Source of the DNA: Minisyncoccota bacterium
GTDB lineage: Bacteria > Patescibacteriota > Minisyncoccia > Phycocordibacterales > JABMNX01
Assembly (NCBI GenBank): GCA_026195275.1
Contig: JAPHQU010000003.1
Location: 7,852 to 71,851, forward strand
DNA: 64,000 bases
Direction: 5' to 3'
Within the stretch, counting starts at the first letter, position 1; every line of letters starts with the position of its first letter. Positions 9,608-62,013 of the stretch are shown piece by piece. Under the pieces are notes generated by a model. That model saw nothing but the letters and a program-made list of their open reading frames with translations, did not search any database and was not told the DNA's origin. Position numbers and translations under genes: made by a program.

Positions 9608-9689
9608 GTGCGCGAGAGAGGACTCGAACCTCCACATCTTGCGATACCAGTTCCTAAGACTGGCGTGTCTACCAATTCCACCACTCGCG
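9608..9689 (-). tRNA. tRNA-Leu (anticodon TAG)
   Basis: Manually folded cloverleaf: anticodon loop CTTAGGA, long variable arm, T-loop GGTTCGAGTCC. Confidence 0.8.
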
Positions 9690-9825
9690 CACACTATTCA
9701 CTTTACAACGAACATTTCTTCGCCTCGCGAAGAATCGGATGAAAAGTAAAGCAGTTTACTTTTCATTCACACGGCAGGTTTAGTCTGACCTGTTTCACCA
9801 TCCCGGCACTTTAAACAAAATCACT

Positions 9826-9850
9826 GTCTGCCAATTCCACCACTCGCGTA
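9826..9850 (-). repeat. partial duplicate of the tRNA-Leu(TAG) 5' part (acceptor plus D-arm)
   Basis: gtctgccaattccaccactcgcg versus gtctaccaattccaccactcgcg in the intact gene. Confidence 0.55.
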
Positions 9851-9870
9851 TTCCCAGAACATCTGCAGGG

Positions 9871-9943
9871 TCCGCCCAGTAGGACTTGAACCTACGACCC
9901 ACCGCTTAAGAGGCGGTTGCTCTACCAACTGAGCTATAGGCGG
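9871..9943 (-). tRNA. tRNA-Lys (anticodon CTT)
   Basis: Manually folded: D-arm TAGCTCAGTTGGTAGAGCA, anticodon loop CTCTTAA, T-loop GGTTCAAGTCC. Confidence 0.8.
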
Positions 9944-10202
9944 ACTCTGCGGACGTTTCAGTGTACATGCATGTCAGTACAAAGAGAAATAATACACGGT
10001 TTGTGTGTTATTTTCAATGCTTTTATACCAAGAGCGGGGGAGGCGTCAGGTTTCTAAACTCGCTCCGCTCATTAAGAACCTCCTGCCCGGGCTCGGTTAT
10101 CGCCGCAGCACGGCTGCGTCGGCTTCGCAACCTCCGCCTTTCGATCCTCGCCTCAGCAAGAAACAAAATCGCGAGATACGCTGTATCCCGCTCTTTGTTT
10201 CT

Positions 10203-10286
10203 GGTGCCGAGGGCGGGGATCGAACCCACATCCCGTAAGGGACCCGATTTTAAGTCGAGCGTGTATACCAGTTCCACCACCTCGGC
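10203..10286 (-). tRNA. tRNA-Leu (anticodon TAA), CCA encoded
   Basis: Anticodon loop CTTAAAA, long variable arm, 3' CCA present in the DNA. Confidence 0.8.
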
Positions 10287-10317
10287 ATTTTATGTGCTGT
10301 CAGTATGCACCTCCGTG

Positions 10318-10389
10318 AGGCCCGGGCGGGAATCGAACCCGCGCATGGAGGATTTGCAGTCCCCAGCGTTACCACTTCGCCACCGAGCC
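10318..10389 (-). tRNA. tRNA-Cys (anticodon GCA)
   Basis: Anticodon loop CTGCAAA, T-loop GGTTCGATTCC, 7-bp acceptor stem with one G-U pair. Confidence 0.8.
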
Positions 10390-36773: not shown

Positions 36774-36857
36774 ATGGCGAAAGTATAGCATGTGGTGTGC
36801 GGAGTGGAGCAATATCGTATACTGTAGAAAAAGGTATTAGCGTAATACAAAAAAGAC

Positions 36858-37247
36858 ATGAAAGGATATATCACCAATATTGAAAAGGATACACTTGAGA
36901 ACACCGACTATCGTCGAGTGCTTTACACGGGCAAGAACAGTCAGCTTGTGTTGATGAATCTTCAGCCGGGAGAAGAGATCGGCAACGAGCTTCATGAACT
37001 CGATCAGTTTATCCGCTTTGAGCAGGGGAGTGCAAAAGTGATACTCAACAACGAGGACGAACACGAGGTGAGTGCCGATTTTGCGGTTGTGATCCCTGCG
37101 GGCACCTGGCACAACGTCATCAACACGGGCGATACGGAGCTTAAACTCTACACAGTCTACTCACCGCCCGAGCACAAGGATGGTGTCGTGCAGAGAACAA
37201 AGGAAGACGAGAAAGAAGAGCACTTTGACGGAGTAACCACTGAGTAA
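36858..37247 (+). CDS. cupin domain protein
   Basis: Cupin_2-like G(x)5HxH...G...W region (ELHELDQF ... AGTWHNV). Confidence 0.6.
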   Translation: MKGYITNIEKDTLENTDYRRVLYTGKNSQLVLMNLQPGEEIGNELHELDQFIRFEQGSAKVILNNEDEHEVSADFAVVIPAGTWHNVINTGDTELKLYTVYSPPEHKDGVVQRTKEDEKEEHFDGVTTE

Positions 37248-37467
37248 AGCAAGAGCGCATACGCCCCTGGTATCATCCTGATGAAATTCACTAAGCAGTC
37301 GTTGTTAAGAACGGATTACATCTTCTTGTTTCTGGTGGTAGCGTCCCTGCCGACAGACTTCTTTTTGGTATATTCGTGTGTACTCACTTTGGTGCGTAGA
37401 CACCTTTGCGCAACATCAGGATAACTCCGTGTTATGGATACCACGCCTCTGATATACTTTATGGTAA

Positions 37468-38931
37468 ATGAGCAATACTTCATTTGATTTTAATCTAAAG
37501 ATATTGCCAGCTGCAATCATGTGTGCCGGTCTGGTTGTTCTTCTATTCCTGCACCCTAATGTGTACGATGCGCAAGCGACAACAACTGCCTACCAATTTC
37601 CAAACGTCTTAGCTGACGGATCGCTTGATACTGCGTGCGCGGATGGTGCTGCTCAAGTAACATTTACCGGCTATGTCGTGACTCAGTTGATACCGAGTGC
37701 GAGTGCAAGTTGTTCTGGCGACAAACCGAAAAGAGACAGGGTAAACTACACAATATCTAGTACCGCAGAGCAAGACCTGATCATGTCGTATCTTGATAAT
37801 GGTGGATATGCTGCTGATACAGTGGTCACTGGACAGGCCTCAGGAAATGATATCTATCTGAAAATCAAAGATACTAATGGGACGGGATACATTAAGCTCG
37901 TTGAAGTTAATCCTGCTAATGGTGCGGTTATCTCGACGGTTGACACGTACTCATTTCCAATGACAATGAATATAAAATATTTGGTTACTGACCTATCGGG
38001 CTTGTTTGGTACCATCCCTGCAGGAAGTACATTCGGTATAAAATTATCTATTACCCCCGATGATCTTACGAGTACGCAAGTTGAAACCAAGTTCGGTCTA
38101 TATGGGACCACCGAGAAGCAAGACTTAGTCAATATCGATGAGACCGAGGTGGTTGTTCCTTCTGGCACGGGTGACCCATCGGACGTTGGTGGTGGTCCTG
38201 CTACGCAGGTCTATTTCTCCGGTCAGGCCTACCCATCAAGCACCGTTGAGGTTCTCAGGAGGAGTTTCATTGAAGATGTTTACCGGAATACTCCAGAAAC
38301 GACTATCGTCATGAATCCCGATGGATCGTTTTCAAATACATACGTCGGACTTTTGAGCAGTGACTATGTCTTTACGCTGCGTGCATATGACGTTGACGGA
38401 CGAACCTCAGGAGCACTCTCCTTTGTTGCCGACCTTCTCTTCACTGACACGCTAAGAGTTGAAGACATCTTCTTCCCGCCGACAGTCGGCTTCAGGAAGT
38501 CGGCGGCCCTCAAAGGCGAAGATGTGTATATCGTCGGTTATGCCGCAGGTGGGAATACGGTACTATTAGATGTAGCTGGGGTTGGTGTGCTTGAGACAAC
38601 TGCAGCAACGTCAACCGGATTCTATGAAGTGTCGCTATCGACAGACAATCTTGCAGCGGGGAGTTACTCTGTTGTCGCGAGGCAGATATCAGACACCCAG
38701 GAGAGTAATTACTCCACACCCAGATCATTCCGCGTGAGCACGTGTTGTATTCGGACTGATTTTAACGCTGATAATGAGGTAAATATAACTGATTGGAGTA
38801 TCTTCCTATACCGCTTCCAGTCCCAAGATAAGTCACTCCACGCTTCAGTAGACCTTAATGGCGATGGAAAGACTGATATCACTGACTTTAGTCTCTTCCT
38901 GCAATCCATCACAATACCCGACATCCTCTAA
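37468..38931 (+). CDS. secreted surface protein with C-terminal type-I dockerin module
   Basis: N-terminal signal/TM. The C-terminus has two Ca-binding segments, DFNADNEVNITD and DLNGDGKTDITD, each followed by SxF(L) helices. This is the canonical dockerin duplicated F-hand. Confidence 0.7.
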   Translation: MSNTSFDFNLKILPAAIMCAGLVVLLFLHPNVYDAQATTTAYQFPNVLADGSLDTACADGAAQVTFTGYVVTQLIPSASASCSGDKPKRDRVNYTISSTAEQDLIMSYLDNGGYAADTVVTGQASGNDIYLKIKDTNGTGYIKLVEVNPANGAVISTVDTYSFPMTMNIKYLVTDLSGLFGTIPAGSTFGIKLSITPDDLTSTQVETKFGLYGTTEKQDLVNIDETEVVVPSGTGDPSDVGGGPATQVYFSGQAYPSSTVEVLRRSFIEDVYRNTPETTIVMNPDGSFSNTYVGLLSSDYVFTLRAYDVDGRTSGALSFVADLLFTDTLRVEDIFFPPTVGFRKSAALKGEDVYIVGYAAGGNTVLLDVAGVGVLETTAATSTGFYEVSLSTDNLAAGSYSVVARQISDTQESNYSTPRSFRVSTCCIRTDFNADNEVNITDWSIFLYRFQSQDKSLHASVDLNGDGKTDITDFSLFLQSITIPDIL

Positions 38932-40589
38932 TGTTCATTTATATAGTTATGACCACACAGTATCGATACAAACAGATAATCTATGGAGGACTCCTGAGTG
39001 TTTTCTTATTCTTTACCATTACGTCAATGGCGCATGCCGCAACGTTACGCTTGTTGCAGAATGGCGAGTTTGATACCGGTCCCGGAGGGAAGATATCGGT
39101 GAATCTTGTGGTTGATACCGGGAGTATCTATATTAATGCCGCTGAGGCAAAAGTTTCCTTCTCAAATGATATTCTTGAACTGGTGAGTGTGGAGCGCACT
39201 GGTTCAATCTTCAACTTCTGGCTCAAAGAGCCGGAGTACTCAAATAAGGAAGGCGTTATGACGTTTGCCGGGGGTACGCCGCGTGGTGTCTCCGGTAATT
39301 CGCTACAGATACTCAGACTTCATTTCCTCGTGAAGGGCGTTGGGGATGCCGATGTGCAAATAGAGGACGGGGTAGTAAGCGCGAACGACGGAAAAGGGAC
39401 TAACGTGCTCTTTAATATCGAGAATCTCTGTATCGAGAGTTGTGGGATTGGTGCCCAGACCGTGACGACCGCGCGGCAGCCCGTAGCAGGACAAGAGCAA
39501 CCAGTTGAGGTTGTTCATACGCCAGTGCCTGGAGAAGCAACGCCCGAAGCACCGGAGCTTCGGGTGAACCTCTATTCTGATCAGACTCTGTGGCATAACT
39601 ACACCGGAGACACAATTGTGTTGTGGAAACTACCAAATGACGTAACAAAGATCGCAACCGCCTTAAACCATAATCCGAATGGAGTGCCGCAGACCTCTAC
39701 CAGCCAGCTCTCAACCGGAAAGGATTTCGGCGCACTTGATGAAGGTGTCTGGTACGTCCATGTTCAATTTAAGAACAATGTGGGCTGGGGTGCGGTCGCA
39801 CACCATCGCATCGCGATAGACACGACGCCACCGACTGTACTCGAAGTGGAAATTGAGAGAGACTCTGAGGAGGATCCGACTGCAGAGATAACACTTCACG
39901 GACACGACGCGCTCTCGGGAATCTCCCATGCAGATATTTATATTGATGGAGAGAAGATAGAAACTGTCTCATCAAGAGAAGGACATCTCGAAACATCTCG
40001 CCTTGTTCTCCCATCGGTTAATCCGGGCCGTCATGTGATTGGTGTTGAGATGTTTGATGTTGCCGGAAATAGTATTGAAGAGCGAATGGAGATTGATGTC
40101 TTACCAATCCAAACTCCGAGGATTGTTTTTAAGCCTGAGGTTGCGCACCTTGCTGGTGGTGAATTTGTATGGGGGTACGGAATGGCGCACACGCTCGTCA
40201 CGCTTCGGCTGGTCTCCGAAGAAGGGTTTGAAGTCTTCTCAAAGACCGTAGAGAGTACCGGCGAGGGACATTGGATGGTGAATCTCGACACAGCACTTCC
40301 TAATGGTGTGTACACACTCGAGGTGAGCGCTGAAGATGAGCGCGGTGCACGAAGCTACCCAACTACAACAGCATTGGTGGTTAAAGAAGAGATATGGATA
40401 TTCACAATTGGCGCTCACGACTTTAGTCTGCTCGAGATTGTACTTGCCGGCGCCCTACTGCTCATCTTTGTGTCTGGGTTTGTACCTGAATCACGAAAAG
40501 AGGCAATCTTACGAAGATTCTTTGCCCAGAAGGAAAAGAGCAAGGAAAAGAAGCCGACAAAGGAGAAGCGTGCTTCAACGGGACGGTGA
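38931..40589 (+). CDS. membrane-anchored protein with N-terminal cohesin-like domain
   Basis: After the signal/TM comes GKISVNLVVDTGSIYINAAEAKVSFSNDILELVSVERTGSIFNF..., matching the cohesin beta-sandwich pattern. Ig-like middle region, C-terminal TM helix and basic tail. Confidence 0.5.
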   Translation: MFIYIVMTTQYRYKQIIYGGLLSVFLFFTITSMAHAATLRLLQNGEFDTGPGGKISVNLVVDTGSIYINAAEAKVSFSNDILELVSVERTGSIFNFWLKEPEYSNKEGVMTFAGGTPRGVSGNSLQILRLHFLVKGVGDADVQIEDGVVSANDGKGTNVLFNIENLCIESCGIGAQTVTTARQPVAGQEQPVEVVHTPVPGEATPEAPELRVNLYSDQTLWHNYTGDTIVLWKLPNDVTKIATALNHNPNGVPQTSTSQLSTGKDFGALDEGVWYVHVQFKNNVGWGAVAHHRIAIDTTPPTVLEVEIERDSEEDPTAEITLHGHDALSGISHADIYIDGEKIETVSSREGHLETSRLVLPSVNPGRHVIGVEMFDVAGNSIEERMEIDVLPIQTPRIVFKPEVAHLAGGEFVWGYGMAHTLVTLRLVSEEGFEVFSKTVESTGEGHWMVNLDTALPNGVYTLEVSAEDERGARSYPTTTALVVKEEIWIFTIGAHDFSLLEIVLAGALLLIFVSGFVPESRKEAILRRFFAQKEKSKEKKPTKEKRASTGR

Positions 40590-40655
40590 TGGTGGATGGC
40601 TTACAACGTAGCACGTCAACTTCATATCTAACAGATTTGTGGTAATATAATCCAT

Positions 40656-41111
40656 ATGAACAAACGTATTTCTGGGTTTACTATTCTCGAACTCTTAGTC
40701 GTTGTTGCAATCATTGGTATCATGACCTCGATTGCACTTTTCATGCTCACTGATGCGCGGGAGAAGGGGCGTGATAGTCGTCGTTTCGATGATCTCGCAC
40801 AGATCAAGAATGCGCTCGAGCTCTACAGTTCTGACAACAACGCACTCTACCCGGCTGGTAGTAGTCTCGACTCCGTAGTGAACGGCGGTTATCTAAAGAA
40901 GCTCCCAGTAGACCCGCTTAATACCGGAGTGTACACATATATGTATCAAGCGACTGACTTCTCTGGTACTGCTTGCAATAGCAATGCCTGCACCAGCTAC
41001 GTGCTCAAGGGTGTCCTTGAGCAGACAGAACAAGAAGCGCTTGTCTCAGACGTTGATGGTGTTATTGGAGGGTTGGATTGCGCTGACCCGGCACTTTGTA
41101 TCACCCCATAG
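40656..41111 (+). CDS. type IV pilin / pseudopilin (prepilin-type N-terminal cleavage/methylation domain)
   Basis: MNKRISGFTILELLVVVAIIGI class III signal with the G-FTxxE motif. Confidence 0.8.
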   Translation: MNKRISGFTILELLVVVAIIGIMTSIALFMLTDAREKGRDSRRFDDLAQIKNALELYSSDNNALYPAGSSLDSVVNGGYLKKLPVDPLNTGVYTYMYQATDFSGTACNSNACTSYVLKGVLEQTEQEALVSDVDGVIGGLDCADPALCITP

Positions 41112-41138
41112 AGAGGTAAGAGATAACCAGTTCAGCTT

Positions 41139-41513
41139 ATGAATAATAGAATGATTATAGGGGTACTTGTAGTAATTGCGTTGCTCTTTGGGTGGTATTA
41201 CTACAATGAGGGCACTGCTGCTGGTCAGTATGACGAGTTTGCTCAATGTATTACTGATAGCGGTACAAAATTCTACGGAACATTCTGGTGTCCGCATTGT
41301 CAAAACCAAAAGAAGGTTTTTGGTTCATCAGAAAAATTCTTACCGTACATCGAGTGCTCAACCCCGAATGGACAAGCACAGCTTCAGATCTGTAAAGATG
41401 CGGGAGTCATGGGATATCCCACGTGGGAGTTCCCTGATGGAAGTCGTCTGACCGGGGAAGTGGAATTCTCAACACTTGCTGAGGAGACTGGCTGCACGTT
41501 GCCACAGCAGTAA
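41139..41513 (+). CDS. thioredoxin-fold protein (DsbA/VKOR-partner-like), CPHC active site
   Basis: N-terminal TM helix; FWCPHCQ redox motif. Confidence 0.65.
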   Translation: MNNRMIIGVLVVIALLFGWYYYNEGTAAGQYDEFAQCITDSGTKFYGTFWCPHCQNQKKVFGSSEKFLPYIECSTPNGQAQLQICKDAGVMGYPTWEFPDGSRLTGEVEFSTLAEETGCTLPQQ

Positions 41514-41526
41514 TGAAATCATTGAT

Positions 41527-42063
41527 ATGACATCATTTGTTGAACAACTTAATCTCATCCTCTCTTTAGGTATTATCGCGCTTCAAATGTCTGCATGTTT
41601 CGTCTTCCTCCTTTTTCTCTTTAAGAAGAAACACCCTGTTCTGAGGCTTATACGCAAGTACGGACTTTTAATCGTGTTTGCCCTCTCTCTGTTGGGGGCA
41701 GTCATGACACTTGTGTACTCTGAGGTTTTTGGTTTTGTCCCGTGTAGTTTGTGTTGGCTTCAACGAGTCTTCTTGTATTCACAGGTAGTTGTTGTAGGGA
41801 TTGCTTTGGTAAAACGAGAACAAGTCGCTATGGTGGCGGATTATCTCATAGGACTCTCGGTTTTCGGTGCGGTTGTTGCGCTTTATCAGCACCTCTTGCA
41901 GGTAGGTGAGCGCGATCTTGTTGGTTGCCCAGTATCAGGCGGGGACTGCTCACAGCGCATCCTCTTTGAGTTTGGTTACATTACCTTCCCGCTTATGGCG
42001 TTCACGCTTTTTGCTGCAATCACTGTATTTATGCTTGCGGCACGTCGTGTTCGGACGTCATAA
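41527..42063 (+). CDS. disulfide bond formation protein B (DsbB/BdbC family)
   Basis: Four TM helices with Cys pairs in both periplasmic loops (CSLCWLQR; CPVSGGDC). Confidence 0.65.
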   Translation: MTSFVEQLNLILSLGIIALQMSACFVFLLFLFKKKHPVLRLIRKYGLLIVFALSLLGAVMTLVYSEVFGFVPCSLCWLQRVFLYSQVVVVGIALVKREQVAMVADYLIGLSVFGAVVALYQHLLQVGERDLVGCPVSGGDCSQRILFEFGYITFPLMAFTLFAAITVFMLAARRVRTS

Positions 42064-45504: not shown

Positions 45505-46434
45505 ATGTACCGCGAAATTCTCAATTCTTTTGATATATACTCTCTCCCTAATCTTGATACTGCGGTGTTAGGCGCGCTTGAGCTTTTTAAAGAGACGCCA
45601 CCGCAAGAATTTAACACCGCTTCTGTTGGCGCACGACCGCTGGTTATTGGAAGTGCGAACGCATGTGCGGTCGGCAAGATTATCTTTCGAGACACTGCCG
45701 CAATTTTTGCTGAAGAGAGTGATTATCGAAAGAAGCTCAAGATTTACCCTGATCGCGATAGCGTGGTCATTATCTCTTCCTCCGGTGGAAAACATGCAGT
45801 TTCGATAGCGGAAGAGTTTGCTGGCTCGGATATCCCGGTCTGGATCCTCACAAACAACCAACAGGCGCCTGCGGCGCGACATATTGACCCGGCACGCGTG
45901 ATACTCTTTCCAAAAAATCGTGAACCGTACACCTACAACACTTCAACATACCTCGGGATGATACTCGCTGGCTCAAGTGAGATGTGCCCCTGTGATCTTG
46001 AATACTTCTCAGAAGTGGCGCGTGTTCTACCAAGCGATATCGGAGAGTATGAAGCGTTCCTTATGACTATCCCAGGTGAATATGCAGAGTTGCGGTATAT
46101 GTTTCAGACCAAGTTCGATGAGCTTTTTGGTGGGCGTGTTACGGGGCGCGTATTCACCACTGAGGAGGTGAAGCACGCAAAGACTGTCGTGCCGTACGAG
46201 AAAGAACTCTTTATTCATCTTGGTGAAGGGAGCGAGTTGTTTCCCGAGAAGAAAGAGAGGGTTGTTGTGCCGCTTTCCGACACACTTGGATATGCAGGCA
46301 TGCTCGCACTTGGGTACTTTATCATTGGAAAAATTCAGGAAGCACACCCCCCATACTTCATCGAGAGTCTAGTTGCGTATACAAAACACGCATCAGAATT
46401 ATTTGGTCAGGATATTAGTCCTATCGTCGAGTAA
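45505..46434 (+). CDS. SIS-domain-like protein (sugar-phosphate binding), uncertain
   Basis: DSVVIISSSGGKHAVSIAEEFAGSDIPVWILTNN resembles SIS-domain motifs. Confidence 0.35.
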   Translation: MYREILNSFDIYSLPNLDTAVLGALELFKETPPQEFNTASVGARPLVIGSANACAVGKIIFRDTAAIFAEESDYRKKLKIYPDRDSVVIISSSGGKHAVSIAEEFAGSDIPVWILTNNQQAPAARHIDPARVILFPKNREPYTYNTSTYLGMILAGSSEMCPCDLEYFSEVARVLPSDIGEYEAFLMTIPGEYAELRYMFQTKFDELFGGRVTGRVFTTEEVKHAKTVVPYEKELFIHLGEGSELFPEKKERVVVPLSDTLGYAGMLALGYFIIGKIQEAHPPYFIESLVAYTKHASELFGQDISPIVE

Positions 46435-59705: not shown

Positions 59706-59897
59706 GGCTTATAATAAACCTATTTCCGGGCAATTAGCCGGCATTTTAAGGATAATATTACACCATATATATGGATACATGTAAATATTTACAAAAACAT
59801 CTTTTTAGAGTTAAATACTACGAGCCGCACCACTTTGGTGTGGTTTTGTCTCAAGTGAGGCAGAACGTTCTTTTCACAAACGAAAGAGGAATTTCAC

Positions 59898-60314
59898 ATG
59901 CAGATCAAGAAAACCTTCTTGGCCGCCGTTGCGGTCTTTGCTCTGGTCGCCCTCAGCATCTCGGCTCCGTCCTTCGCGGGCGGCGGCAATCACAACGATT
60001 ACAGCGGCGGGTTCGCCAATGGCGCCTCCGCTATCAGCGGTGTCGCGGGTGGTTCCTTCGCTGTTGCCGGCCCTGGCAATGCCAGTGGATACGCCGGTAC
60101 GGCGGCGAGCGTTTCGACCCGTGCCAGCGTGGACGGTTGCGGCTGTGACATGTCTGCCTCGGGTGCTTCGTCTGGCATGAGCGACTCGTATGCGCGTACC
60201 TCCGGCAACGCCGAAGCCGGCGCCGGTTCCGATTTCTGGGGCGAATCGTTCGCTTCCGATTTCGACTACGGCGACTGGTCCGGTCACAGCCACGGTCACG
60301 GTCACGGTCACTAG
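59898..60314 (+). CDS. secreted Gly/Ala/Ser-rich protein with C-terminal HGHGHGH tail (high-GC island gene 1)
   Basis: Signal peptide (SFA-GGG), low-complexity G/A/S-rich body with a CGCD motif, terminal SHGHGHGH. About 63% GC versus about 47% in the flanks. Confidence 0.55.
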   Translation: MQIKKTFLAAVAVFALVALSISAPSFAGGGNHNDYSGGFANGASAISGVAGGSFAVAGPGNASGYAGTAASVSTRASVDGCGCDMSASGASSGMSDSYARTSGNAEAGAGSDFWGESFASDFDYGDWSGHSHGHGHGH

Positions 60315-60387
60315 ACCTGGTCGATGACCAAAGGGGTGAGAGATTCCTCTCACCCCTCCTCTACACCCTCGAAAGGAGAAGTGAGCC

Positions 60388-60948
60388 ATGAAAAAATATC
60401 TTCTCATGCTCGCGTCACTCGCTATGGCGGCGTTCGTCTCGGTGGGACCGGCTTTTGCTGGCGACACTTCGGCTGAAGCCGCGGCGCAAGCCGTTAGCGG
60501 CTCGGGCGCTGTCAGTCAGCAGGGGCAATCGATCTACCAGAACTTCGAGGGTTCAACCTCGAACACCAAGGTGGTCAATGCTCCTGACGCGGTTGCGCCG
60601 GGTCTTACGACCTCGTACGCAAACACCTGTCACGGCTCGACCAGTGGCGGCGCATCCTTCGGGAATGGTGCCGTTGCAATCGGTGCGTCCTTCGGGACGA
60701 CCTGGAAAGACGAGGGGTGCGAAGCGCGCCTCGACTCTCGAGAACTCCGTTCTCTCGGACAGAAGGAAGCCGCTCTCGAGCGACTCTGCCAGATTCCCGA
60801 GAATGCGGCCGCTCTCAGAGCCGCCGGACGTCCGTGTCTCGCTGATCAGCAGAAGACACAGGCCGAAGCTGCCGAAGCCCAGGCGTATCTTGAGCAAGGC
60901 AACGTTCCTCAAGTGGTTGCGAAACTCGAGCCCAACAGTAATACGTGA
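60388..60948 (+). CDS. secreted hypothetical protein (high-GC island gene 2)
   Basis: Signal peptide (AFA-GD), four Cys, high GC. RBS aaggagaag upstream. Confidence 0.5.
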   Translation: MKKYLLMLASLAMAAFVSVGPAFAGDTSAEAAAQAVSGSGAVSQQGQSIYQNFEGSTSNTKVVNAPDAVAPGLTTSYANTCHGSTSGGASFGNGAVAIGASFGTTWKDEGCEARLDSRELRSLGQKEAALERLCQIPENAAALRAAGRPCLADQQKTQAEAAEAQAYLEQGNVPQVVAKLEPNSNT

Positions 60949-61026
60949 ATCCGGGCAAGGAATCCAACCCAAAGCAACGCCACTCCAGGAGTTCTCTCCT
61001 CGAGTGGCGTTTTTCTTTAGAGGCTA

Positions 61027-61055
61027 TTGACAGTAAATGAATAATACTGTAGAAT
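61027..61055 (+). promoter_or_regulatory. near-consensus sigma70 promoter TTGACA-N17-TAGAAT
   Basis: ttgaca gtaaatgaataatactg tagaat, followed by RBS aaaggagaa and the ATG at 61094. Confidence 0.55.
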
Positions 61056-61093
61056 CTGCTTAGATTAGAGTATTCAGGAAAGGAGAACACTCG

Positions 61094-61606
61094 ATGAATA
61101 TCAAGATGCTCGTTGGGGCGTTCGGCCTCATTGTCTCGCTCTCGGCGTGTGCCGCGACCGGCAGCCAAACTGGCTTTGCCGAGCCACCGCCCGAGGCGAT
61201 GCAGCCAAAGATCGACCTGAAACCACTTTCGAAGAAGGTCGGCGAAAAGCTTGTTGGTACCACATGGACCGGCAATCTCTCTCTCATGAACTGTGAGGAT
61301 GCGGAAGTGAGATACGAGGTGGTGAAGTACCTCGAGAACGCGAACCGCCTCCTCGTCAAAGTGGAGAGCAAAGAATGCTCGGCGATGGATGGCAACTACG
61401 TCGGTCTGATTCTTCCGAATGGCCGTGTGGTTGTCGCGGATCGCTACGAAGTCCGACAGATTGATGCCGACCTCGGCGCCAACCAGGAGACCGGCGAAAT
61501 CAAAGACGAGGGTCTTTTCACCTTCGTCATCAACGACCGCCGCGACAACACTTTTCGTGAAATCATCCGGAGGGTGACCAAGCTTTTGCGGACCGACACT
61601 CGGTAA
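61094..61606 (+). CDS. putative lipoprotein (high-GC island gene 3)
   Basis: Lipobox-like LSLSAC at the end of the signal peptide. High GC. Confidence 0.5.
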   Translation: MNIKMLVGAFGLIVSLSACAATGSQTGFAEPPPEAMQPKIDLKPLSKKVGEKLVGTTWTGNLSLMNCEDAEVRYEVVKYLENANRLLVKVESKECSAMDGNYVGLILPNGRVVVADRYEVRQIDADLGANQETGEIKDEGLFTFVINDRRDNTFREIIRRVTKLLRTDTR

Positions 61607-61637
61607 GAGAAAATTCCTGTTCTTTCGAGTAAATAAC

Positions 61638-61705
61638 AACCCCAGTGCTTATGCACTGGGGTTTTCTTTTTAACGCCTCACTTCGAATGAGGCGTTAATT
61701 TTTAT
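61638..61705 (+). terminator. tandem rho-independent terminators closing the island
   Basis: Hairpins aaccccagtgcttatgcactggggtt and taacgcctcacttcgaatgaggcgtta, each followed by T tracts. Confidence 0.6.
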
Positions 61706-61728
61706 TTAAAACATGGTATTCTTGCGGC

Positions 61729-62013
61729 ATGTTTAAACGAGTTGAAGAAGATTTCATATGCGAGCGTTGCGGGTACGAGGTGCCCGGAAGTGGCTATACC
61801 AACCACTGTCCGGAGTGTCTCTGGAGCAAACATGTCGACAATGAGCCGGGAGACCGCGCAAATGAGTGTGGCGGCATGATGCGCCCTGTCGCACTTGAGC
61901 CGCATCACAGCGAGTACCGCATACTCCACCGATGTACGCTCTGTGGGCATGAAAAGTACAATAAATTGCAAGAAGGGGATATATTTGACCCCGAACTTGT
62001 TTTAAACAGTTAG
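61729..62013 (+). CDS. RNHCP-domain zinc-ribbon protein
   Basis: CERCGYEV...YTNHCPECLWSKH...CTLCGHE contains the eponymous N-H-C-P motif and paired CxxC. Confidence 0.5.
   Translation: MFKRVEEDFICERCGYEVPGSGYTNHCPECLWSKHVDNEPGDRANECGGMMRPVALEPHHSEYRILHRCTLCGHEKYNKLQEGDIFDPELVLNS

Follow-up and report, generated by a model that had tools for sequence, protein, structure and literature searches.

What does a CPR bacterium do with a dockerin protein and a cohesin protein that are encoded back to back? The two genes lie within a 64-kb stretch of DNA (the window), the part of the genome that was examined, and a preliminary description had proposed them as a candidate cellulosome-like pair in a small-genome lineage. 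The lineage was read correctly: the organism is a CPR bacterium, and each of the two proteins has a 100% identical database entry from a Candidatus Pacebacteria MAG. No part of the CPR is larger or less well understood than Paceibacteria/Parcubacteria. Few have been cultured, and the means by which they attach to hosts and surfaces are largely obscure. The protein domains of the pair are already present in automated annotation, and a search of the literature turned up no earlier account of a cohesin-dockerin pair in CPR/Patescibacteria. The comparisons described below suggest that the pair is probably a non-cellulosomal cohesin-dockerin tether, a conserved two-gene module of Paceibacteria/Parcubacteria.

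Both of the genes described earlier were recovered from the ORF list:

37468..38931, + strand: ORF1, the dockerin carrier ("cargo"), an ORF of 487 aa including the stop
38931..40589, + strand: ORF2, the cohesin anchor, 552 aa if translation starts at the first ATG or 546 aa if it starts at the ATG at 38949

Database comparison showed that ORF1 matches P0121 ("hypothetical protein OQJ98_01815 [Ca. Pacebacteria]") and ORF2 matches P0001 ("cohesin domain-containing protein [Ca. Pacebacteria]", 546 aa), in both cases with 100% identity. The junction between them reads CTC TAATG TTC, so that the stop (TAA) and the initial ATG of ORF2 have one base in common. This 1-nt overlap, which had been reported previously, hinges on the choice of start codon because P0001 begins at the second ATG (38949), and with that start the two ORFs are separated by a gap of 17 nt. 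Their tight linkage is independent of the start. A promoter and terminator scan of the window, which performed at chance level overall, identified no terminator-like site between the two ORFs.

ORF1 can be divided into the following features:

37468..37575, + strand: predicted Sec signal peptide, aa 1-36 (...VYDAQA/TT), read by eye from the sequence
37576..38157, + strand: variable head, aa 37-230, an extracellular, so far unannotated module in which two Cys are near-invariant
38158..38745, + strand: conserved stalk, aa ~231-426, a pair of Ig-like modules ahead of the dockerin
38746..38916, + strand: type I dockerin module, aa 427-483, from Pfam Dockerin_1 and a local family HMM
38758..38793, + strand: Ca2+-binding loop 1, DFNADNEVNITD, aa 431-442, predicted from ligand positions
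38851..38886, + strand: Ca2+-binding loop 2, DLNGDGKTDITD, aa 462-473, predicted from ligand positions

The predicted signal peptide has a basic n-region, a hydrophobic core (ILPAAIMCAGLVVLLFL) and an AxA site. At the other end of the protein, residues 430-476 match Pfam PF00404 (Dockerin_1) with 26.2 bits, above the curated gathering score of 22.9, and the module scores 104.6 bits against the local family HMM. The two loops, DFNADNEVNITD and DLNGDGKTDITD, are spaced 31 residues apart, carry Asp or Asn at the predicted Ca-ligand positions 1, 3, 5, 9 and 12, and are each followed by the motif (W/F)S(I/L)FL. We compared these positions across related loci from species-representative Paceibacteria/Parcubacteria genomes, 81 of which were assessable, and found the ligands to be near-invariant in the 80 that encode a carrier. 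In loop 1, position 1 is D in 80/80, position 3 is N in 68 and S in eight, position 5 is D in 74 and N in five, position 9 is D/N in 72, and position 12 is D in 80/80. In loop 2, the corresponding counts are 79/80 (D), 79 (N/D), 79 (D/N), 76/79 (D/N) and 79/79 (D). The best matches of the dockerin family profile are solved type I dockerins (2yik, 2y3n, 1daq, 4fl4 and 2mte), with EF-hand proteins mixed among them at similar scores, as the fold predicts. Judged by these profile matches and ligand positions, the C-terminus of ORF1 is a genuine type I dockerin with two Ca-loops, as first described. When 57 carriers from the retrieved loci were scanned with Pfam, Dockerin_1 was identified at E<=1e-5 in 19 of them. 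The two Ig-like modules of the stalk are common to all 79 other carriers; Pfam finds a weak Big_6 match at aa 346-408 of ORF1 and Big_6 in 6/57 carriers.

The features of ORF2 are as follows:

38931..39038, + strand: predicted signal peptide, aa 1-36 (...SMAHA/ATL), with a model helix at aa 3-29 and the AxA site read by eye
39039..39437, + strand: cohesin module, aa 37-169, a type I-like nine-strand beta-sandwich
39438..39605, + strand: Pro/Glu-rich flexible linker, aa ~170-225, low pLDDT
39606..40388, + strand: stalk of approximately four Ig-like domains, aa ~226-486, from the AF2 model and Pfam
40422..40484, + strand: C-terminal transmembrane helix, aa ~498-518, LLEIVLAGALLLIFVSGFV, with a model helix at aa 500-517
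40485..40589, + strand: short basic tail (predicted cytoplasmic), 34 aa plus stop

The cohesin was harder to recognise than the dockerin. The sequence of ORF2 itself has no match to Pfam PF00963 even at E<=1, no cohesin match in NCBIfam, and no match to PDB cohesins using phmmer. PF00963 is, however, matched by 28 of 61 aligned full-length ORF2 homologues (best 5.6e-9), and the ORF2 family profile reaches the Ruminococcus flavefaciens cohesins 5aoz (0.0056) and 5m2o (0.018). The AF2 model of full-length ORF2 (pLDDT 87.7) resembles multi-Ig/FN3 chains in Foldseek searches, and because these generic chains swamped the results we modelled the N-terminal module alone. It was predicted to form a nine-stranded beta-sandwich (jelly-roll), with no helices and no flaps, that can be superposed on solved cohesins. 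Its top structural matches include the OlpA/OlpC cohesin complexes 3ul4 and 4dh2, and further matches include a cohesin from Archaeoglobus fulgidus (2xdh) and cohesins from Clostridium perfringens (2jh2, 2vo8 and 2w1n). The cohesin-like N-terminal beta-sandwich of the preliminary description is confirmed by a family-level profile and a predicted fold, not by a direct HMM match to ORF2, and it is solely by such family-level and structural methods that the N-terminus of ORF2 is identified as a genuine cohesin. Invariant residues of the module map to strands 3, 5, 6 and 8 and to the 8/9 loop of the model, a placement that is only suggestive of dockerin binding through the 8-3-6-5 sheet.

The remainder of ORF2 has the predicted architecture of a membrane-anchored stalk. 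There is no Cys at the predicted signal peptide, so ORF2 is not a lipoprotein. In the AF2 model, pLDDT falls below 50 at aa 172-184 of the linker and regular structure is absent until approximately aa 226, after which the stalk consists of beta-strand blocks with pLDDT above 90. Pfam Big_13 matches aa 422-482 (33.6 bits; cut-off 27), and the family profile matches the Ig domains of SiiE (2yn3, 1.7e-6). The C-terminal transmembrane anchor with a basic tail, also noted at the outset, was borne out by a segment with a mean Kyte-Doolittle hydropathy of 2.55 over 19 aa, followed by a tail of 34 aa compared with a family median of 77 aa.

Are the two proteins partners? An ORF2-type anchor is encoded in at least 575 species-representative genomes, and in 80 of the 81 assessable loci the gene immediately upstream of the cohesin gene, on the same strand, encodes a dockerin-ended protein. 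One of the loci with the pair, L043, comes from a Yanofskybacteria MAG. The sole exception (L049) has the anchor and no carrier. Across the 80 loci, the dockerin is always at the extreme C-terminus of its carrier and the distance from the end of the dockerin module to the cohesin module is 16-190 nt. Apparent second dockerins in five loci were rejected as sub-threshold fragments inside the same ORF. The dockerin and the cohesin are also the best-conserved portions of carrier and anchor, with mean p-distances of 0.50 and 0.55 versus 0.70 and 0.61 for the respective stalks. In a mirror-tree analysis (partial Mantel), dockerin and cohesin distances were significantly correlated (partial r 0.41), as were those of the carrier stalk and the cohesin at 0.45; all segments co-vary, so this signal is not specific to the dockerin and cohesin, is not usable as evidence of binding, and may reflect shared descent alone. 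It is the near-universal adjacency of the two genes in relatives that strongly suggests that ORF1 and ORF2 are cognate partners. If they were not, the dockerin-like module might be stabilised by Ca2+ and serve a structural or ligand-binding purpose, and the cohesin-like sandwich might bind carbohydrate, a host surface or another protein, with adjacency reflecting a common process and not docking. We consider this unlikely, given a single, adjacent carrier per anchor with its dockerin always terminal, the conservation of precisely these two modules within otherwise fast-evolving proteins, and the observation that all solved cohesins among the top structural matches are dockerin receptors.

If the dockerin is the constant part of the carrier, the head is the variable part. 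Only the C-terminal ~250 aa, comprising the two Ig-like modules and the dockerin, are conserved among all carriers. Heads range from approximately 150 to 1,700 aa and consist of modules of adhesin type, and carrier ORFs that lie whole within their contig and locus are approximately 350 to 1,985 aa long. The modules identified in the 57 scanned carriers include FN3, Ig-like, YDG, InlB-B-repeat, Sortilin/BNR, RTX, Calx-beta, SusE, CBM96 and beta-helix, and none of the 57 has a GH catalytic domain. A database search with the dockerin profile yielded short fragments only and was not used as a census of cargo architectures. The ORF1 head is absent from the other 79 carriers, save for partial sharing with that of locus L001, and its profile matches no Pfam family and no PDB entry. 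It has 53 representatives among 1.84e9 proteins, mostly within large surface proteins that carry Laminin_G_3, DUF2341, PKD, cadherin-like or Peptidase_C25 domains. No fold or family could be recognised for the head, so its role is argued from this domain company, which suggests that it is most likely a binding module (an adhesin or ligand-recognition module) and not an enzyme.

Together, these features outline a probable mechanism, and the pair does look like the minimal surface-display system, with a membrane-anchored cohesin partner, that was first envisaged. ORF2 would be exported by Sec and retained in the cytoplasmic membrane by its C-terminal helix, leaving the short basic tail inside the cell. 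With this predicted topology, the stalk and the Pro/Glu-rich linker would project outward and present the single type I-like cohesin at the membrane-distal N-terminal tip. ORF1 would be secreted separately, and we infer that its C-terminal dockerin, loaded with Ca2+, plugs into the ORF2 cohesin in a Ca2+-dependent manner. The two conserved Ig-like modules of ORF1 may behave like the X-modules of type II/III dockerins. The lineage-specific N-terminal head would thereby be held non-covalently at the cell surface as the functional payload, presumably in an adhesive role, with a host cell, a surface or a polymer as its ligand.

A surface-contact sensor would be compatible with such a tether: the head would sense a ligand or host, and the anchor tail would signal to the single-domain receiver (REC) proteins, and sometimes to the kinases, encoded beside the pair in most relatives. 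REC-only genes lie within 100 nt of the pair upstream in 27 (400-nt window) and/or downstream in 36 of the 80 loci, a sensor-less HisKA-HATPase follows the anchor in L002, a dCache-PAS kinase adjoins the pair in L003, and the cytoplasmic tail of the family is helical, conserved and approximately 77 aa long. However, neither our window nor its closest relative has a REC neighbour, and their tails are truncated (34 and 23 aa), so the idea cannot fully apply to the pair described here. Tail length and REC adjacency are not associated (Mann-Whitney p=0.84), and the flanking REC genes may merely regulate expression. We regard a sensing function as very unlikely. A broader scenario, in which the pair works across the phylum as a plug-and-play device for host recognition whose constant anchor and joint carry diversifying heads that set the host or surface, with relay through the ~77-aa tail to REC in most lineages, is likewise improbable. 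If true, this would be the first cohesin-dockerin complex serving as a transmembrane contact sensor.

Finally, ORF2 could be a scaffoldin that anchors carbohydrate-active enzymes through their dockerins, forming a minimal cellulosome tied to the glycoside hydrolases downstream. The cohesin and dockerin are structurally nearest to cellulosomal type I modules, a GH1 and a clan GH-A-like hydrolase are encoded 1.6-3.8 kb downstream of the pair, this synteny is retained in the closest relative, and CBM96 plus a beta-helix were found in 1/57 carriers. Most of the neighbours named earlier were confirmed, namely the two hydrolases, a pilin-like N_methyl protein and DsbB, alongside an EamA protein, but "DsbA" is merely a CxxC protein with no Pfam match and the putative sugar kinase (45505-46434) had no Pfam match. 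Neither hydrolase has a dockerin; the GH1 has no N-terminal signal sequence by inspection and the clan GH-A-like hydrolase has an N-terminal transmembrane segment. The 64-kb window contains one cohesin and one dockerin, the latter on ORF1, which has no catalytic domain, and no dockerin-bearing CAZyme is encoded within it. ORF2, with one cohesin and no CBM detected by Pfam, does not resemble a multiple-cohesin or CBM-bearing scaffoldin. In more distant relatives this hydrolase neighbourhood is absent and receiver and kinase genes flank the pair in its place. Dockerin-bearing enzymes could be encoded elsewhere in the genome, outside the 64 kb examined. With a single cohesin and dockerin, dockerin-free hydrolases and no GH domain in any scanned carrier, the term "cellulosome-like" is unsupported and enzyme display is highly improbable; an adhesion complex, the other role suggested for the pair, is a better fit to the sequence evidence.

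A syntenic module found in at least 80 species, with its anchor in at least 575, is a concrete candidate for an attachment apparatus of Paceibacteria/Parcubacteria, one that would combine a constant anchor and joint with a hypervariable adhesin-like head. The carrier head could mark host or substrate specificity in metagenomes, and the small dockerin and cohesin modules are open to recombinant binding studies that make cultivation unnecessary. It would also represent an unusually widespread use of cohesin and dockerin as a general joint for surface tethering, unconnected with polysaccharide degradation.

Three groups of known systems bear comparison with the pair. The cellulosomal anchoring scaffoldins OlpA and OlpC of Clostridium thermocellum similarly place a single type I cohesin on a surface anchor that captures a type I dockerin, as predicted here. 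They attach to the cell wall through SLH domains and capture enzymes, whereas ORF2 is anchored by a transmembrane helix and its captured protein is predicted to be non-enzymatic. The modules of A. fulgidus (2xdh) and of the C. perfringens toxin complexes (2jh2, 2vo8 and 2w1n) are non-cellulosomal, but in the matched entries the cohesins are parts of glycoside hydrolases (GH33 sialidase and GH84C NagJ), whereas ORF2 is a dedicated membrane-anchored stalk. We know of no similar pair of cargo and anchor, syntenic across a phylum and with interchangeable heads, described for these modules. In R. flavefaciens, cttA is located directly upstream of scaE (PMC4081043), and the CttA adhesin is kept on the cell by binding of its XMod-Doc to the cohesin of ScaE, whose own attachment is by way of its C-terminal side (PMC4266597). 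The gene order and the geometry are the same here, with the dockerin carrier predicted to be held by a single-cohesin anchor. At the position of the CttA-type X-module, the carriers have two Ig-like modules before the dockerin (79/79 others), which are possibly analogous to it and whose distances track those of the cohesin (partial r 0.45). The two systems differ in that ScaE is attached covalently to peptidoglycan by sortase, while ORF2 has no LPXTG motif and ends in a transmembrane helix and basic tail; the cohesin of ScaE belongs to type III and has extra elements, while that of ORF2 is a plain type I-like sandwich atop a long Ig stalk; ScaE additionally anchors a full cellulosome via ScaB, while the window encodes no other dockerin proteins; and the heads of CttA are cellulose-binding CBMs, while those of the carriers are hypervariable. 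Of the readings considered, the best fit is that ORF1 and ORF2 would serve, by analogy with CttA-ScaE, to tether variable adhesin-like heads outside any cellulosome.

The dockerin carrier ORF1 and the cohesin anchor ORF2 are adjacent genes with the following features:

37468-38931, + strand: ORF1, 487 aa
ORF1 aa 1-36: signal-peptide-like N-terminus (..AQA/TT)
37576-38157, + strand: ORF1 head, aa 37-230
ORF1 aa ~231-426: two Ig-like modules
ORF1 aa 427-483: dockerin
ORF1 aa 431-442, + strand: Ca2+ loop 1, DFNADNEVNITD, Asp/Asn at ligand positions 1, 3, 5, 9 and 12
ORF1 aa 462-473, + strand: Ca2+ loop 2, DLNGDGKTDITD, Asp/Asn at ligand positions 1, 3, 5, 9 and 12
38931-40589, + strand: ORF2, 552 aa from the first ATG
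ORF2 aa 3-29: N-terminal helix (signal peptide, AHA/A site)
ORF2 aa 37-169: cohesin
ORF2 aa ~170-225: Pro/Glu-rich disordered linker
ORF2 aa ~226-486: about four Ig-like domains (Big_13; similar to SiiE Ig repeats)
ORF2 aa ~498-518: TM helix
40485-40586, + strand: basic tail of ORF2, 34 aa (aa 519-552)

The junction reads CTC TAATG TTC, and the public ORF2 entry begins at the next ATG (38949), giving 546 aa. The genes therefore either overlap or lie 17 nt apart: the overlap of stop and start in the preliminary description holds for the first ATG (one shared base) but not for the second. No terminator-like site was found between ORF1 and ORF2, and promoter and terminator matches in a scan of the region around the pair were at chance level. 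Each protein has a 100% identical counterpart in a Candidatus Pacebacteria MAG. The domain calls are already known from automated annotation, in which ORF2 is named 'cohesin domain-containing protein' and ORF1, a 'hypothetical protein', carries a precomputed PF00404 match.

Pfam Dockerin_1 matched ORF1 aa 430-476 with 26.2 bits (gathering score 22.9), and each loop is directly followed by (W/F)S(I/L)FL. The ligand positions are near-invariant across 80 related loci, with D at position 1 in 80/80 (loop 1) and 79/80 (loop 2) and at position 12 in 80/80 and 79/79, which bears out the type I dockerin with two Ca2+ loops originally proposed. Solved type I dockerins ranked first against the dockerin-family profile (2yik, 2y3n, 1daq, 4fl4, 2mte), intermixed with EF-hand proteins as expected for the fold. 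The two halves are near-symmetric (consensus I-x-D-W-S-I-F-L and I-x-D-F-S-I-F-L). A dual binding mode accompanies symmetry of this kind in type I dockerins (cf. PDB titles 2vn5, 2vn6), and this dockerin may share that mode.

The cohesin was less apparent from sequence: ORF2 alone had no Cohesin match in Pfam, NCBIfam or PDB sequences, but its family did. This family is large (215 matches, ~570-590 aa) and well aligned (alignment A1); 28/61 members matched Pfam Cohesin (best 5.6e-9) and 60/61 matched Big_13, and the family profile weakly reached Ruminococcus flavefaciens cohesins (5aoz, E=0.0056). AlphaFold2 modelled ORF2 aa 28-172 from a 61-sequence alignment with a pLDDT of 93.5 and a pTM of 0.88, as nine main strands and zero helices. 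The first 38 Foldseek matches to this module in the PDB were all cohesins (E down to 1.8e-8, TM ~0.75), spanning types I, II and III and non-cellulosomal examples. The cohesin fold is thus confirmed by two methods, and the module was assigned as type I-like because it has no helix or flap insertions. In the full-length model (pLDDT 87.7), the TM helix and basic tail appear at the C-terminus, as first described. The ORF2 sequence contains neither an LPXTG motif nor a lipobox cysteine, and ORF2 is inferred to be a type I membrane protein with its cohesin at the far tip of the stalk.

A scan of species-representative genomes identified ORF2 relatives in at least 575 genomes. Eighty loci carry labels from many Paceibacteria/Parcubacteria lineages, among them Giovannoni-, Nealson-, Wolfe-, Yonath-, Lloyd-, Harrison-, Staskawicz-, Kaiser-, Adler-, Azam-, Buchanan-, Magasanik- and Yanofskybacteria. 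Record titles of several pair contigs (L009, L046, L067, L071, L072, L080) read 'uncultured Gammaproteobacteria', 'Methylococcaceae' or 'Deferribacteres', and 'Saccharibacteria' is a frequent title; mislabelling or contamination of MAG bins is the probable cause, not true occurrence outside Patescibacteria. Local HMMs of both modules were run on six-frame ORFs from 83 non-duplicate loci including the window, 81 of them assessable (L021 and L080 are truncated upstream). In 80/81, 16-190 nt separate the end of a dockerin module from the cohesin module that follows it on the same strand, a gap approximating the length of the anchor signal peptide; only L049 has an anchor and no carrier. In all 80 loci the dockerin forms the very C-terminal end of the carrier, and carrier ORFs uncut by contig or locus edges range from ~350 to ~1,985 aa. 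In four loci two cohesin genes follow the carrier in tandem: in three the additional gene encodes a short cohesin protein of ~320 aa between carrier and full-length anchor (L075:5812-8510, L078:5034-7707, L082:5040-7716), and in the fourth a second full-length anchor (L054:5896-9440). The L073 cohesin gene lies in two frames (frameshift or assembly error). Apparent second dockerins in relatives were rejected as sub-threshold fragments.

Dockerin and cohesin are conserved better than any other part of their proteins (mean p-distance 0.50 for dockerin and 0.55 for cohesin; stalks, 0.70 and 0.61). Partial Mantel tests correlated the carrier stalk with the cohesin (0.45) as well as the dockerin with the cohesin (r=0.41, p=5e-4), which indicates co-inheritance, not specific co-evolution. 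That the modules are co-located and do not interact is unlikely, given the pairing in 80/81 loci.

ORF1 aa ~225-483 is the only part common to all 79/79 other carriers. Searched exhaustively with HMMER against 1.84 billion representatives, the ORF1 head has 53 relatives, none (0/53) with a dockerin motif. The majority are large surface proteins, reaching ~2,700 aa, in which the head is accompanied by Laminin_G_3, DUF2341, PKD, cadherin-like or Peptidase_C25 domains, the last C-terminal and gingipain-like. The unannotated ~190-aa head sometimes occurs twice per giant surface protein (database proteins P0138-P0175). It has two near-invariant cysteines, its profile matched nothing in Pfam or among solved structures, and it is a candidate for a new domain family.

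Of the relatives, only the closest, L001, shares the genes that surround the pair here; in more distant relatives, receiver and kinase genes flank the pair. REC-only CheY-type genes (~125-135 aa) adjoin it in most loci, upstream in 27 and/or downstream in 36 of 80, mostly within 100 nt (e.g., L005:3861-4654, L016:3086-3887, L058:7728-8168; also L002 and L003). A sensor-less HisKA-HATPase lies directly 3' of the L002 anchor gene, and L049 has a kinase and REC where the carrier would stand. The anchor family has a conserved, helical, cytoplasmic tail of ~77 aa (motif ..ARDIDKL..LL.DDLK..; window compared with L002, L003 and L005-L007), against 34 aa in the window and 23 aa in L001. The flanking genes and the tail would suit a contact sensor elaborated from a tether; such a role is improbable, as there is no REC gene at 36800-41200 of the window or in L001 and tail length showed no association with REC adjacency across loci (p=0.84).

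Upstream of the pair are an alpha/beta hydrolase, an HI0933-like flavoprotein and a cupin. Downstream, the anticipated pilin and glycoside hydrolases were recovered as a pilin-like N_methyl protein, a GH1 and a clan GH-A-like hydrolase with an N-terminal TM segment, alongside an EamA gene. The supposed DsbAB pair stood in part: a DsbB-family gene (41476-42063) is present, but its partner is a small CxxC (FWCPHCQ) protein without a Pfam match (41139-41513, N-terminal hydrophobic segment), encoded directly ahead of the DsbB gene and overlapping that gene when the TTG at 41476 is taken as its start, an arrangement also found in L001. Speculatively, the two could form an oxidative-folding pair for secreted Cys proteins such as ORF1, which has a cysteine pair in its head and CC before the dockerin. 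The 309-aa ORF at 45505-46434, previously called a sugar kinase, had no Pfam match at E<=1e-3. Elsewhere, the window has nine tRNA genes, four clustered at 9609-10389 (- strand). Positions 60001-62000 have a GC content of 0.563 (~0.47-0.51 elsewhere) and no Rfam families at the gathering threshold; long ORFs overlap on both strands at 59874-61639.

The cellulosome-like scaffold first proposed is not borne out: the 64 kb contain one cohesin and one dockerin, and no neighbour gene up- or downstream of the pair carries a dockerin. A Pfam scan of 57 carriers found fn3 (13), the FN3-like Pur_ac_phosph_N (12), Big_6, NDNF, YDG, Big_3_5, InlB-B-repeat, Sortilin/BNR, DUF4215, SusE, RTX, CBM96, beta-helix and Calx-beta, and no glycoside-hydrolase catalytic domain. 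This content suggests that the carrier heads are adhesin-type binding modules. Enzyme display, for which the nearby glycoside hydrolases might speak, is thus the least probable reading.

With module identity, architecture and conserved pairing established, the pair is probably a tether for an adhesin-like head. Both proteins would be exported, ORF2 remaining in the membrane and holding its cohesin out on the stalk; the Ca2+-loaded dockerin of ORF1 would dock there, possibly with support from the conserved Ig-like modules, in the manner of X-modules in type II/III complexes, and the variable head would thereby be displayed at the surface.

Cohesin and dockerin modules outside cellulosomes are already known (Peer et al. 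2009, as cited in PMC10066038). Full-text literature searches and a Paceibacteria parasitism paper yielded no account of a conserved carrier-anchor cohesin-dockerin pair in CPR/Patescibacteria. The load path proposed for ORF1/ORF2 matches the geometry of the R. flavefaciens CttA-ScaE adhesion complex, running from the head through Ig modules, a C-terminal dockerin and a cohesin to an anchor attached C-terminally of the cohesin (PMC4266597), and cttA lies directly upstream of scaE (PMC4081043), as the carrier gene does of the anchor gene here.
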